Shown here piece after piece: positions 332 to 42,111 of a stretch of DNA of 64,000 nucleotides. Numbering within the stretch: the first letter of the stretch is position 1; each line of letters opens with the position of its first letter. The stretch comes from Octopus vulgaris (lineage: Eukaryota): positions 146,196,001 to 146,260,000 of the forward strand of contig OX597816.1 of the NCBI GenBank assembly GCA_951406725.2, written 5' to 3'. The notes under the pieces are model-generated. The model was not told where the DNA came from. It made no database searches and saw nothing but the letters and a program-made list of their open reading frames with translations. The translations under genes were made by a program, and so were the position numbers.

Positions 332-1022
332 GTAAAGTTGAAACTCAGAGGGAGATTCCACGTGGTGGTAAATATAAAATTGGATTTAAGGTGAAAAAGG
401 AGAGAAATCTTGCTTGTGTAGATAAAGATTCAATGTCATGAAATCATGAAGTCATAATGTTTTGATTTATCTTGCGTAGAAGCAAAGATGAAACAGTTTT
501 GCGTTTATACAGAGGAGTATAGCTCAAGGGGATTAACTAAATGGATAATCACTGGATATATTTATTAACTAAGAGGTGGTAAATTTTTCCCCCTTTTCTA
601 ATTTTTATTTGTGAATTCCACTAAATATTCATGTTGTGTTCTGGTTTGTATTTTTCGATAAATGCGGCCAATTTATTTAGCCGTTGATGAGTTGAGATCC
701 TTTCCGAGCAATGGCATAATGGGAATATTGTGAATTGTAGATGGCGTAACTTAGAACATCTTAGCATATGACCACTGAGTGGTATTTCACAGCATTGAGG
801 GTGGTAGATTTGTCGTCTGTGTAGTTTAGGTATACGTCTGCGGGACATTCCTGTTGCGCCTATATAGTTTCTACTGCAGCCGGAACATGTTATGATGCAG
901 ATGAGATTTTCAGAGGCGCAAGTGAAGTTAGTTTACATGCAAAATTTTGTCCTTTTTTTAAAAGGGAATCCTGAGTCTTCCATTATGTTGGAACGTGTTC
1001 TAGAGTTCGGTCGCCCATATTT
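332..1022 (-). mobile_element. 5'-truncated Penelope-like element (Neptune-type GIY-YIG endonuclease plus 3' UTR)
   Basis: Minus-strand translation GRPN..TNFTCASENLICIITCSGCSRNYIGATG..LHRRQI..FTIFP..FIEKYKP (ORF 621-848 is the C-terminus). The 3' end (..tatatt..accacgtg..caacttt) resembles that of the copy at 41414-42090 and abuts (TA)n. Confidence 0.85.
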
Positions 1023-2420
1023 GAAAGCTTTTTACATTTCCGCTCGAAGGTGAGCGAAGGTACGCGGATTACGACCATATACCCGATCTTTTGATACTTC
1101 CGAAAGAAATAAGTCACATGGGGTGAGGTCGGGTGACTAGGTAGGCCATTCGATTGGCCCTCGTCATCCAATCCTCGCGCCAGAAAAATTGTCATCCAAA
1201 CACTCGCGCACTGACATTGTATAATGTGGCGGCATCCCATCCTGCTGCAAGTAAAAGTCTCATGTTTGCTCTATTACTTGTGACTAGAACCAGTTTTGAA
1301 GTATATTACGGTATGACGCTCCGGTGACAGTAGCATCAAAAAAGTATGGTCCAATACGAAATGGCACGCCACACGCTGAGGCCAGGCAAATCCACCGACT
1401 TCTGCAAAGTGTAATGAAGAGTTTCGGAATTCCAGCACACGTAGCCATGTTTGTCAATTTGTCCCTTGAGTTTCAAATCTGTTTCATTAGACGACAAGAT
1501 TCTGTCGACGGACGACGGATCATCTTCGAGCATCGGTTGAACATTTTCGCATGCTTCTCGGCACTGATCAGGATCGTTGTCATTAAGTTCATGTACGAGG
1601 CGTGTGGAGGCGCAATGGCCCAGTGGTTAGGGCAGTGGACTCGCGGTCATAGGATCGCGGTTTCGATTCCCAGACCGGGCGTTGTGAGTGTTTATTGAGC
1701 GAAAACACCTAAAGCTCCACGAGGCTCGGCAGGGGATGGTGGTGATCCCTGCTGTACTCTTTCACCACAACTTTCTCTCACTCTTACTTCCTGTTTCTGT
1801 TGTACCTGTGATTTCAAAGGGCCGGCCTTGTCACTCTCTGTGTCACGCTGAATATCCCCGAGAACTACGTTAAGGGTACACGTGTCTATGGAGTGCTCAG
1901 CCACTTACACGTTAATTTCACGAGCAGGCTGTTCCGTTGATTCGGATCAACCGGAACCCTCGTCGTCGTAACCGACGGAGTGCTTCCACATGTACGAGAC
2001 GTGGAGTGTACGGTGCTTTCATAGTTCAAACAAAGTTATGTCAACAGTTGAGTAACTCACATGAAAATCTGAATGGTCGGCAAATTGGCTTGAAATTGGG
2101 CTTGATGCCGGAGTGTTGTCGTTAATCTCTCTCATATCAGCAGCCTGAAACTTTCATTTGTTGTACAAACTTGGTCGACCAGTGTTGTTCATCCTTTACG
2201 GAACCGGTAGTTTCGAACTTTCTTATTAAACGAACGATTGAACGACTGGGAAGATGTGAGCATGTCTCTCTTCCTGCTACTGCTGCATTATTCATCGCAT
2301 AATAGTTTTTCACAATATTAACACATTCTTGTAAAATAAATCGTATGTCCATTTCACAACACTAAAAGCCGCTGTTGGAACGCAACAAATTGAATTTTGA
2401 ATTCAACGCAACAAAATGAT
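1022..2420 (-). mobile_element. Decayed Tc1/mariner-superfamily transposase (maT/DD37D-like, DUF4817-type N-terminus), interrupted by a SINE
   Basis: N-terminus ..IVKNYY..SIVRLIRKFETTGSVKD; ILSSNET..GQIDKH..WNSE..SVW (FSDE region); LQQDGMPPHY; GRRGPIEWP.SHPDLTPCDLF (WP.RSPDLTPCDFFLWG motif). Contains frameshifts and stops. Confidence 0.8.
1605..1988 (+). mobile_element. Full-length SINE family A (tRNA-derived) with TSD
   Basis: Box A TGGCCCAGTGG and box B GGTTTCGATTCC. 15-bp TSD catgtacgag(g/a)cgtg at 1590-1604 and 1989-2003. Near-identical inverted copy at 5953-6335. Confidence 0.92.
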
Positions 2421-3204: not shown

Positions 3205-3575
3205 ATTAGCATTACAAGAAATACATCACTAAAAATTGAAAACGCTTCCTAGATGACTGCTTCATTTTTGGGAACAAATCCAATGAGGTCCAACAAACAT
3301 TTAACAATATACTTAACACACTTCACCCCTCCATTTAATTCACGGCAGAATCCAGTTGCAATGAATTACTATTCCTGGATATTTACATAAAAATACGCAA
3401 ACACACAGTCGCAACAGACATACACCCATCTTTGAATTTCTACTTTTGCCATCCCTCATGCATCAAAAGAAACATTCCATACAGCATAGCAAGACCAATC
3501 TGGACTATAGCAATTGACACCAAAATACGTCAGACACGACTGAACGATCTCAAAGACTTCCTAACAAAGCAGGTA
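3205..3575 (+). mobile_element. Penelope-like RT fragment (Neptune-type), pseudogenic
   Basis: *KRFLDDCFIF..LNTLHPSI*FT..FLDI..CHPSCIKRNIPYSIARPI..RLNDLKDFL, covering RT motif C and thumb. Confidence 0.85.
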
Positions 3576-21586: not shown

Positions 21587-22713
21587 ACATACACACATAT
21601 ATGTGTATGTTTGTGTTTGTGTGTGAGTGTTAAGTCACAGATATTTGTCATTTTATACACCCCCTATCGTTTTCTCGTAGAATGATACATTAAGGAGGAA
21701 GTGTGGTGTGGGGATGCATATTTATCTTATCCCTGGAATTTATGGAGCAAAAATCCTGTTTGTGTCAGTCATCGCTTGACTTCACCGGCTGTTATATTAA
21801 TGAAGGTACTTTTGATGCAAACGGTACGACGGTAGCTCATTACGAGAGCAAATTTTATATTGATGACATCTGGTAGAATTCACAGAGTAAGATATAAAAA
21901 GGAATCTGTTTGGCTGTGAGTTTCCCTCTCTTATAGTAAAAAAGATCTCGCATAAGTATTTTTAGCTATCACAAATATCTATTTCTGTTTAAACAGCGCT
22001 TATGCAGACAAGTATCTCTGGTGGAAAAGGGACAAAATATTACAGGAACAATACATAATTGTTCTTGACAGATTTAGAAGTTCAGATTTATGAGCAAACC
22101 GTATAAACCCCAACAACTTCAAGAGATATTAATTGGCAACTACAAGCGATACGTTGTTGACGGTTTTATATCTTCGATACTACGTTTTGATCAAATTATT
22201 TATTTCGTCAAAATAATGAATAGCATAAATAATAGTATTCAATAGACCATACGCAAAAACACAGACCTTTTATGGATATTTTAGTCAATAAAATTGACAC
22301 AGACATAAAAATAGACATTACTTCAAACCAGCATACGAAAAACAATATTTGATTATTAATAATTGCCACCACGAAACAGCCAAGCAAATACACAGTTCAA
22401 ATTTGAAAGAATAATCTGCTCAATTGCATCTCTTTCAGAAACACTGGATAGACGACGTCAAGTGTTGAAATATTAAGGAAATTACAATTTGAAAAGTAGT
22501 AACAATCAAAAATAATTAAGGACGGGATACAACGAGTCGGGGATAGTGAGGTAAAAGCTACCAATGAAGAAACAGACATCTTACAAAGCTTTCTTTCATG
22601 TATCAAAACACGGCCTATCAAATATAGGAGCACGCTATATCTTTCATATATTCGAATGTAAGTACATACGTACGAACATATATTCATATATATACTCGCG
22701 CATATCCATACAT

Positions 22714-39079: not shown

Positions 39080-39097
39080 ATAATTTCGAAATACAAA

Positions 39098-39400
39098 GGA
39101 ATATCCCAAGAATACGGCAAAGGCGTGGCTGAGATCTGTTGTGGCTTACCATGAGGCTAATACCTATATTTATGTTGGCTGCTCTGTAAATCTAAAGCAA
39201 CACTTATGCAATCACTATTCATCATTTGAATTAAGACATTGGGCAGGCAGTACATCTCTAGCTACAAAGATTTGGGAACTTACAGACGACAATGTTAAAA
39301 TTTTATACCGTTTGCAAACAGTAGATACTGGTGCAGATTTTGCTGCATGGAGCTGTTTGAAACATGAAAGAGATCAAATAGTGAAAATCTAATTAATAAT
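39098..39400 (+). mobile_element. Nematis-type PLE GIY-YIG fragment
   Basis: YIYVGCSVNLKQHLCNHYSSF..STSLATKIWELTD, homologous to 6800-7140. Confidence 0.7.
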
Positions 39401-40236: not shown

Positions 40237-40487
40237 CGGCTAACTGTGATGTTGTATGTTTTCCGACGACTGACGGCGCAGTGTGACTTAGCCTGCTCTC
40301 GCCATTGGACACTTGTGACCGACGAAGACAAAGTGACAGAAATGGGCATTTAGTAATGCTATTACATGAGAAAATGATCGATTTATGCACGTGCGTATGT
40401 TCATGTATATGTATCTGTGCTCGTACACATATATGCCTGTGTGTGTGTCTGTGTGTTTCTATATATGTATATATGCGTGTGTATATA

Positions 40488-41132
40488 TATCTCAAGTCAT
40501 ATACGTTATTATTATAGAAAAAATATTCAGTCTTACAGCTGTTTCTGGGATATCCCAGAGTATGAGATCTTCCGTTATCGGTGACAAATAGGGAAAATGA
40601 GAAGGGTATAGATTAATGAAATGACGACAGAGAGGTCAGGAGTACAGGAATGAGAAGATGAAGAAAAAGAAGGAAAAAGAAGCATAAACGTTCACAGTTC
40701 AGCTTTCCGATCGTGTATAAATGAATCCAGAACTTCTTAGGTGCAACCGTGCGTAAATTCATGTGGGTTAAAGTCCTGATAGAGTAAATATTCAGAAAAA
40801 AAAAACGCAAACATAGCAATGTTCAATAACAGAATGGTAGTGTATGTGGCCTAAACCACATGGATTTACGCAGGATTGCACCTAAGGACTTATGGAATTA
40901 TTTCTACAAGATCGGAAATTTGAACTGTGTAATTTTATGATTCTTTTTTCTCGTTCTTCATCTCCTTATTCCATTACTCCTGTCCTCTGTGTCATCATTT
41001 CACTAATTTGTAGCCTTCTTATTTTCCCCTTTTTTCTCCGATGACTGAATATCCCATACTCTGGAATATCCTCAAAACACCTGTAAGACTGAATTTCTTT
41101 TCCAATAATAATAATGTATATGACTTGAGATA
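40488..41132. mobile_element. Inverted pair of HHR-bearing units (about 285-bp arms)
   Basis: 40488-40772 is approximately the reverse complement of 40850-41132. Each arm carries a CCGAT(G/A)A..(G/A)AAACA(G/C)CTGTA-AGAC hammerhead pointing outward (40530-40585 minus, 41035-41089 plus). Confidence 0.8.
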
Positions 41133-41209
41133 TTTGCCTTGCCTTAACGGTTGTTGTCCTCTTTAACAATTATATATCTGCTATACCGGAAATGTTCAAT
41201 GGCTCCGTA

Positions 41210-41293
41210 AATACCTTCTTGGCTATAACCTTGGAGCCATAGTAGTCCGTTACAGTACCCAGTCGTTTAGATAAGAAGTGAAGTAGACTCCCG

Positions 41294-41331
<38 letters not shown>

Positions 41332-41415
41332 CGGGAGTCTACTTCACTTCTTATCTAAACGACTGGGTACTGTAACGGATTACTATGACTCCAAGGTTAT
41401 AGCCAAGAAGGTATT
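41210..41415. repeat. Near-perfect approximately 205-bp palindrome centred on (TA)n
   Basis: aataccttcttggctataacc...gactcccgtat-(TA)n-atacgggagtc...ggttatagccaagaaggtatt with 2 mismatches. Confidence 0.97.
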
Positions 41416-42090
41416 GGCTATAAGATTCAAGATCAAAGTTAGATTCAAGATCAAATCTAACTTTACTTGTGCCTCTGAAAACATAATTTATGTCATAAAA
41501 TGCTCGGGCTGCCACCAAGACTACGTGGGATCCACGGGACTATCACTCAGACGTAGATGCACACTGCATCGACAACAGATTGCATTCCCAGAATACAGAA
41601 TGATACCTTTTAGTGAGCACATTGAGAAATGCACAAAGCAACTACTACCACAATTTTTAATCTTTCCATTTTACCAATGTGCTATCGGATCATCAACACA
41701 AATTAGACTAAACAAGGAAACATTCTTCATTGAAAAGTACAAGCCCAAACTTAACCATGCCAACATACTGATACAGAGAAATTCACACTAAGGGAAAGGA
41801 AAACAATTTTAAGCGATTATCTCCCTTACACCGGAAGAAATCACTCATTACCTCCCTTTATTTAGAACTCTTTTAAACATAAACATAACGTCGTAAGAAA
41901 TTTGAAAAGCTAAACGCGAAACCGGTCTTTCTTCTAAATTATGTCATTGGAAGAGAAAAAAAATGTAATATTCTTCAGACATATTGACGCAAATATATAT
42001 ATATTTTAACCTTTAATCCTTGTGTAGTTTTTTCACTTTTTACTATTTTCTATATATTCAAACCACGTGCTTTCACAAACCAACTTTCTT
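41414..42090 (+). mobile_element. 5'-truncated Neptune-type PLE: open GIY-YIG domain, HHR and 3' end at (TA)n
   Basis: ORF 41414-41791 SNFTCASENIIYVIKCSGCHQDYVGSTG..RCTLHRQQI..FSEHIEKC..IFPFY..RLNKETFFIEKYKPKLN. Confidence 0.92.
41895..41933 (+). ncRNA. Minimal hammerhead, U3-A8 core variant
   Basis: AAGAAA-t-TTGAAAA-GC(taaac)GC-GAAA-CCGG-TC-TTTCTT; 6-bp helix I, palindromic helix III ACCGGT, GUC site. Confidence 0.75.
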
Positions 42091-42111
42091 ATATATATAT
42101 ATATATATAAT

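Follow-up and report, generated by a model that had tools for sequence, protein, structure and literature searches.

A near-perfect palindrome of host flank centred on (TA)n at the 5' junction of a young PLE insertion in Octopus vulgaris

A 64-kb window of the Octopus vulgaris genome (the whole stretch of DNA analysed here) holds a young PLE insertion whose 5' junction is preceded by a spacer-free palindrome, in which positions 41210–41312 and 41313–41415 are 98% complementary. This palindrome was confirmed as a real feature of the assembly, and its right arm proved to be the left flank, copied locally in inverse orientation. From the arrangement of the sequence, the right arm was probably made during the insertion of the PLE, when the cut left end would have folded at its self-complementary (TA)n and been elongated with its own strand as template. 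Read most simply, the whole junction would combine this fold-back with a second snap-back, a snap-back of the cDNA, and microhomology joining.

Structure of the palindrome

The palindrome is composed of a left arm (41210–41296, plus strand), a central (TA)16 tract (41297–41328), which would have acted both as target and as self-primer, and a right arm (41329–41415, minus strand). The left arm is the native 3' end of an older repeat, and carries private changes (a deletion of ~15 bp and substitutions). Once the (TA)16 tract is set aside, each arm measures 87 bp, with only two differences between them (41237/41388 and 41245/41380), in good agreement with the preliminary description, where about 88 bp left of the (TA)n had been reported as inversely copied to its right. 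DNA folding of the region 41200–41470 gives −117.9 kcal/mol (z = −28.9), a value that none of 200 shuffles equalled.

With respect to the older-repeat family, the left arm bears a derived base at 41245 and the right arm another at 41388, while the position corresponding to 41245 still holds the A of the family in the right arm. Since each arm has its own derived base, the right arm does not appear to have been copied from the present-day left arm, a point against a chimeric fold-back read; a consensus of mixed haplotypes may be an alternative source of one derived base per arm. The divergence of the arms (2/87; 95% interval 0.3–8.1%) and the age of the PLE, as judged from its nearest sibling, seem compatible, and do not separate formation at the time of insertion from later repair.

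Origin of the arms

The arm corresponds to the last 87 bp of an older repeat present in high copy number, an origin overlooked in the preliminary description. Other copies of this repeat are 78–89% identical to the arm (best 40 of 1677 candidates scored), and most of them terminate in a microsatellite at the same point as the window copy. In the window, the older repeat forms a head-to-head unit (40487–41296), with an inverted copy at ~40487–40850 and a forward copy at ~40852–41296 that ends at the (TA)n. It exhibits two 3' termini, at ~41177 and ~41296, and a tail of ~120 bp. Its layout is PLE-like, as judged by the two 3' termini, the head-to-head copies, and the microsatellite end; tblastn found no RT or GIY-YIG coding match in 29 + 19 loci, where the copies share just a few hundred bases upstream.

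The private changes of the window copy are common to both arms, and in the genome searched (2.8 Gb, 227 contigs) a 32-mer spanning these changes has no match, at up to two mismatches, outside the two arms. The left arm runs on into the remainder of the older repeat, and the right arm ends at 41415. It is the presence of the private changes in both arms, together with this stop, that shows the right arm to be a local copy. On the other hand, when the arm was compared with ten natural PLE copies and with the downstream DNA, no match exceeded 11 bp, so the arm was ruled out as an end of the PLE itself, and the earlier remark that it does not resemble the 3' end of that PLE proved accurate.

The inserted element

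The young PLE (41443–42091, plus strand) is 5'-truncated, and comprises the GIY-YIG coding end (to 41791), a 3' UTR, and a 34-nt tail (42058–42091). Its 3' end is followed by (TA)10 (42090–42109) and then by (GATA)n, which represent the right half of the target. Given that the copy ends in this succession of tail, (TA)10, and (GATA)n, the empty site would have a simple structure, reading older repeat–(TA)n–(GATA)n. Among the best-scoring matches, 39 other places in the genome are 98–99% identical to the insertion, the nearest sibling reaching 99.1% over 448 bp. The family is a high-copy one, three exact patterns of which match 391, 376, and 795 places. Insertions of the family show a clear targeting of (TA)n, which is found at 163 of 181 3' ends.

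The truncated GIY-YIG frame of the preliminary description was recovered in part, as the core of the domain is present and its score (E 0.0022, 18.7 bits) lies under the Pfam cut-off of 22.6; the missing portion is the RT part. The domain is 92% identical to the C-terminus of a natural copy of the family (L094), whose frame of 811 aa holds an RT followed by a C-terminal GIY-YIG domain; the RVT_1 match of the family reaches E 8e-07 and 29.4 bits, against a cut-off of 29.6. The family therefore combines RT and C-terminal GIY-YIG in one ORF, as EN+ PLEs do, and it also exhibits their 5' truncation, inverted 5' copy, and optional one-end tail of 30–40 bp. Inspection of the translations by eye revealed a C-X4-C-X2-C motif and a CxxC within the core, and by these motifs the element would fit the description of Neptune/Nematis given in the consulted text of PMC8557442. 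No hammerhead ribozyme, of the kind expected in the pLTR of EN+ PLEs, was found among 61 Rfam matches (E ≤1) from three loci, which are devoid of a full-length 5' end and in which minimal hammerheads may escape. Other PLE-like copies have left decayed pieces of RT or GIY-YIG sequence elsewhere in the window (633–1031, 3219–3563, 22117–22470, and 39084–39392).

Templated pieces between the palindrome and the PLE

Templates within the locus were found for every base from 41329 to 41445. The sequence TTGGCTATAA (41414–41423, plus strand) is the inverse of 41397–41406, from which it is separated by a 7-nt loop, and equals 41219–41228; this 10-bp inverted copy could be the product of a second snap-back. 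It is followed by AGATTCAAGATCAAA, which is directly repeated, the 15 bp at 41423–41437 (plus strand) being a copy of 41441–41455, which covers the beginning of the PLE and two bases of the following piece. Both the re-copied 10-mer and the tandem repeat that the preliminary description had placed after the palindrome were located in this way. A third piece had been overlooked: the 11 bp at 41435–41445 (minus strand) are an inverted copy of PLE bases 41454–41464, with an 8-nt loop, as would result from a snap-back of the cDNA.

Shuffling the 81-nt junction yields a hairpin of at least 10 bp in 0.06% of cases, and none of 178 windows of a PLE copy contains one. The three templated pieces overlap by 1–3 nt, microhomologies that are weak indications when taken alone. 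The AG at 41423–41424 is absent from the siblings, where AGAA occurs in 175 of 187 motif matches (loci not deduplicated). The junction thus presents nearby-templated insertions flanked by primer/microhomology repeats, the pattern expected from SD-MMEJ or Pol theta-type repair. Rfam matches comprised only generic hairpin and TA types, all below their gathering scores. An open frame of 153 aa runs from the right arm into the GIY-YIG domain; it has no Met before the domain, and was treated as a chance occurrence.

Survey of other insertions

In the first sample, 251 element ends yielded 181 insertions, reduced to 178 after dropping three duplicates, and 33 that ran beyond the retrieved DNA were left unscored. 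An inverted PLE 3' end lies on the left (TA)n end in 70 of the 145 resolved insertions, so this left end is likely a live primer in the PLE family. A second batch added 77 resolved insertions, partly picked for their single orientation and therefore excluded from that fraction. A total of 132 junctions were scanned for flank fold-back, 11 of which were moved to the two-headed class on inspection, resulting in 121 one-headed junctions. Including the window locus, 61 of these join directly at (TA)n, and 68 hold (TA)6+ within 250 bp.

The preliminary description had proposed to survey such junctions for inverted copies of the flank. None of the other 120 one-headed junctions has a TA-centred flank fold-back (upper 95% bound 2.5%); the fold-back is a single event and not a habit of the PLE family, and its support is limited to one locus. 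The candidates rejected during the scan had arms made of microsatellite (L086, L171, L198, L207, L221, L323, L353, L355, and L356), a palindrome internal to the PLE (L206), an overlooked two-headed copy (L261), or an inverted repeat of older date that does not include the (TA)n (L316). The palindrome of L206, diverged and of ~200 bp, lies in the upstream PLE ORF and is internal to one PLE subfamily, with many copies.

The genome is rich in inverted repeats, which appear at a loose threshold at 31 of 482 control positions, one of them as a perfect 111-bp stem. Near-perfect hairpins, with the window locus left out, were found at 1 of 131 junctions and at 1 of the 482 controls, with no clear enrichment. 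One of the other junctions (L089, on C1 near 117.125 Mb) holds a perfect 19-bp flank hairpin centred on GGTACC, 61–22 bp left of the PLE 5' junction, followed by re-copied pieces; it amounts to a second flank fold-back, though not at (TA)n, and other copies of the flank repeat have one arm only. Likewise, enrichment of short re-copies (at least 10 nt) was not shown, with 2 of 80 junctions (window locus included) against 0.41 expected.

Across 1.36 Mb of DNA, mostly centred on PLEs, 1526 distinct (TA)6+ tracts were examined, 3 of which are flanked by long arms: the window locus, L260, where the arms are the PLE's own ends, and L037, where they are two diverged repeat copies. No other fresh flank palindrome was found among these tracts. 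In L260, a (TA)6 bridge (1567–1578) joins two PLE 3' ends head-to-head. Other arrangements were observed at the 5' junctions of L052 and L093, where the (TA)n is directly duplicated together with ~40 and ~100 bp, respectively, of the flank downstream (long target-site duplications); L093 also holds an inverted PLE end further left. In L174 (1934–2236), there is a near-perfect 303-bp palindrome of another repeat family, flanked by (TA)n, with a small, two-headed young PLE copy ~300 bp away.

Proposed mechanism and alternative explanations

As we infer the order, direction, and timing of the steps and the enzyme, the (TA)n would be cut on both strands, and cDNA synthesis, primed by the right 3' end, would proceed as far as 41443. 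Resection would leave the left end single-stranded, allowing it to fold at the (TA)n and copy 87 nt. The new left-end TT would then snap back onto the AA at 41405–41406 and add 8 nt, and the AAT at the end of the cDNA would snap back on the cDNA itself, adding another 8 nt. The left strand would subsequently pair with the cDNA by 1 nt, copy 14 nt, slip, and re-pair (AAA/TTT) at the extreme end of the extended cDNA, after which the hairpin would be opened by fill-in and the palindrome fixed. Either host repair of the Pol theta type or the RT could carry out the synthesis.

The same product could be reached if the 3' end of the cDNA was the one that copied, entering the flank near 41219–41228, switching strand at 41210, copying towards the break, and joining via (TA)n pairing. 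The final sequence would be identical, and the consulted text of PMC11371274 describes R2 junctions where the cDNA end appears to prime antisense on nearby target DNA. However, this order would require both flank strands in turn, and G41424 would have to come from a second strand or by chance, whereas each step from the left end would use a single strand at hand (the resected top strand, the new strand, or the cDNA) and would account for the AG at 41423–41424. For this reason fold-back of the left end is preferred, and copying from the cDNA is considered quite improbable; as regards direction and enzyme, the sequence gives a preference and not a proof. An unlikely course is a usual PLE insertion followed by a later break at the adjoining (TA)n, repaired by resection, fold-back, and microhomology joining that trimmed the PLE 5' end. 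The resected bottom strand would have the sequence of the cDNA, hence the identical scar; in addition, TA repeats are reported in the consulted text of PMC13645644 as break sites repaired by MMEJ, and the age interval of the arms is wide. Nevertheless, two events would be needed at one spot in a short time, and since the other (TA)6+ tracts surveyed are free of fresh flank palindromes, fold-back at TA without an insertion is at least as rare. Moreover, PMC10191854 describes the L1 cases as belonging to the breakpoints of somatic insertions.

The possibility that the right arm derives from a fold-back chimeric long read, or another error of assembly, was considered in the light of public contigs of three runs from one sample (best share 0.10 of 10 words). 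No contig spans the stretch or junction, covers 41416–41442, or represents the empty site. The sole contig with private arm sequence (81 nt, run X1, depth 11.3) matches 41338–41387 exactly, including the right-arm base, and stops beside the 41237/41388 difference; it could come from a single arm, would fit two arms, one allele, or a filter hole, and counts neither way. Coverage holes are, however, no proof of an artefact, and the plain flank at 41186–41205 is likewise uncovered in X1. The family base retained in the right arm together with its own change, and the patchwork of short templated pieces running into an intact PLE end, make an artefact very unlikely. Another source of the arm could be a transcript of the older repeat from this locus, on which the left 3' end would have primed reverse transcription with the geometry of the inverted 3' ends usual in the PLE family. 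In its favour, the arm forms the 3' terminus of a repeat with a PLE-like layout that stops at a (TA)n, left-end RNA priming appears common in the young PLE family, and one L1 case with co-insertion of a nearby pre-mRNA is reported in PMC10191854; this route is nonetheless highly improbable, given that the older repeat is 5'-truncated and 11–22% diverged from its relatives, and that a DNA fold-back requires no additional molecule. Finally, if the older repeat had inserted twice, independently and tail to tail, into a single (TA)n, this would agree with an arm that is the end of a high-copy family, and L037 is a diverged pair of this kind elsewhere. This explanation was excluded, with hardly any probability left to it, by the private changes held in common by the two arms and absent from the rest of the genome, and by arms 98% alike compared with the lower identity of the best other copies (best 40 of 1677 candidates). 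The preliminary description had named a high-copy element end with two independent insertions as the outcome that would refute it; the former part was found, and the latter is contradicted by the private changes in both arms.

Fold-back priming at the (TA)n, as originally put forward, is thus retained as the simplest reading of a right arm of local origin. What was not borne out is its generality, as it is one event, and the sequence does not tell it from the repair of a later break.

One-end tails and their significance

Of 90 two-headed insertions of the family (among L031–L363), 84 carry the 34-nt 3' tail at one end and not at the other (61/65 + 23/25; binomial p = 5e-19 versus 0.5). The tail is independent of which arm is longer, and lies on the shorter one in 39 of the 84. 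Tailed short arms are not possible as fold-backs of a tail-less cDNA, and hence the second end likely primed their synthesis on RNA. This regularity suggests a concerted priming from two fixed start sites, and the near-strict pattern is a more testable mechanistic lead than the fold-back scar.

Extending this, we tentatively propose that PLEs targeting (TA)n may cut both strands and use both 3' ends concertedly, with two fixed RT starts, as the tail on exactly one end would indicate; a second end that fails to capture RNA might then let the (TA)n prime on its own flank. If true, such PLEs would steadily supply the germ line of microsatellite-rich genomes with AT-centred palindromes that have no spacer, at up to ~2% of one-headed insertions. 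Being one rare event, of a type already published, the octopus case changes little by itself. Its junction is, at the same time, an unusually readable scar of 5'-side joining, which is the part of PLE insertion that is least understood; it suggests that fold-back and microhomology routes complete PLE intermediates as they do in L1 and R2, and that a (TA)n target allows a free end to self-prime, leaving a spacer-free palindrome.

Comparison with known systems

In the literature searched (few subscription papers, with supplements and figures outside its scope), no paper describing the fold-back of a flank at the junction of a PLE was found. The canonical EN+ PLE unit consists, in the consulted texts, of an inverted 5'-truncated copy and an optional tail of 30–40 bp (PMC8557442, PMC3846280). 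The octopus family follows it in its layout (the 70 of 145 insertions mentioned above), its (TA)n targeting, and its 34-nt tail. However, the inverted piece at the window locus is host flank and not the element's own end. A Penelope protein is described as cutting and extending both strands of AT-rich DNA, with reverse transcription starting at two sites that bound the tail (PMC11167929), and TA repeats as cruciform-forming break sites (PMC9890227, PMC12972899, PMC13645644).

Hairpin-primed synthesis, followed by unwinding and re-annealing at short microhomologies, is shared with SD-MMEJ, which comprises snap-back and trans modes (PMC5728401, Khodaverdian et al. 2017), and with fold-back priming at breaks in yeast (PMC10622511), as is the use of TA/AT primers. 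Unlike in SD-MMEJ, as portrayed there, the octopus tract is 87 nt long, several hops follow, and the other end is a retroelement cDNA; the yeast products, for their part, are chromosome-scale dicentrics, unlike the octopus junction.

Insertions made by the R2 protein exhibit snap-back 5' junctions with antisense cDNA or nearby target DNA (PMC11371274, Zhang et al. 2024), and the 11-bp cDNA hairpin of the octopus junction is similar to these. Nevertheless, R2 is a site-specific non-LTR element, unlike a PLE, and its priming is assigned by those authors to the cDNA 3' end, whereas the long arm of the octopus palindrome is better explained from the target end.

The closest likeness is found in L1, for which PMC11702581, too, describes inverted duplications and fold-backs at target sites. 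Among human somatic L1 insertions, short fold-back inversions upstream of the target were reported in 3 cases (0.3%), plus 1 combined case (0.1%), with 52–220 bp of extra synthesis (PMC10191854, Nam et al. 2023). As in these, an inverted duplicate of the 5' upstream flank is joined directly to the 5' end of the retrotransposed body, here with 87 bp and at 1 of 121 one-headed junctions. By comparison with the consulted text of PMC10191854, the octopus case is unlike them in that the element is a GIY-YIG PLE, the scar is fixed in an assembly, and its centre is a self-complementary (TA)n without spacer. With the same structure, and a similar size and rarity, the octopus scar is nonetheless of a kind already known from L1.
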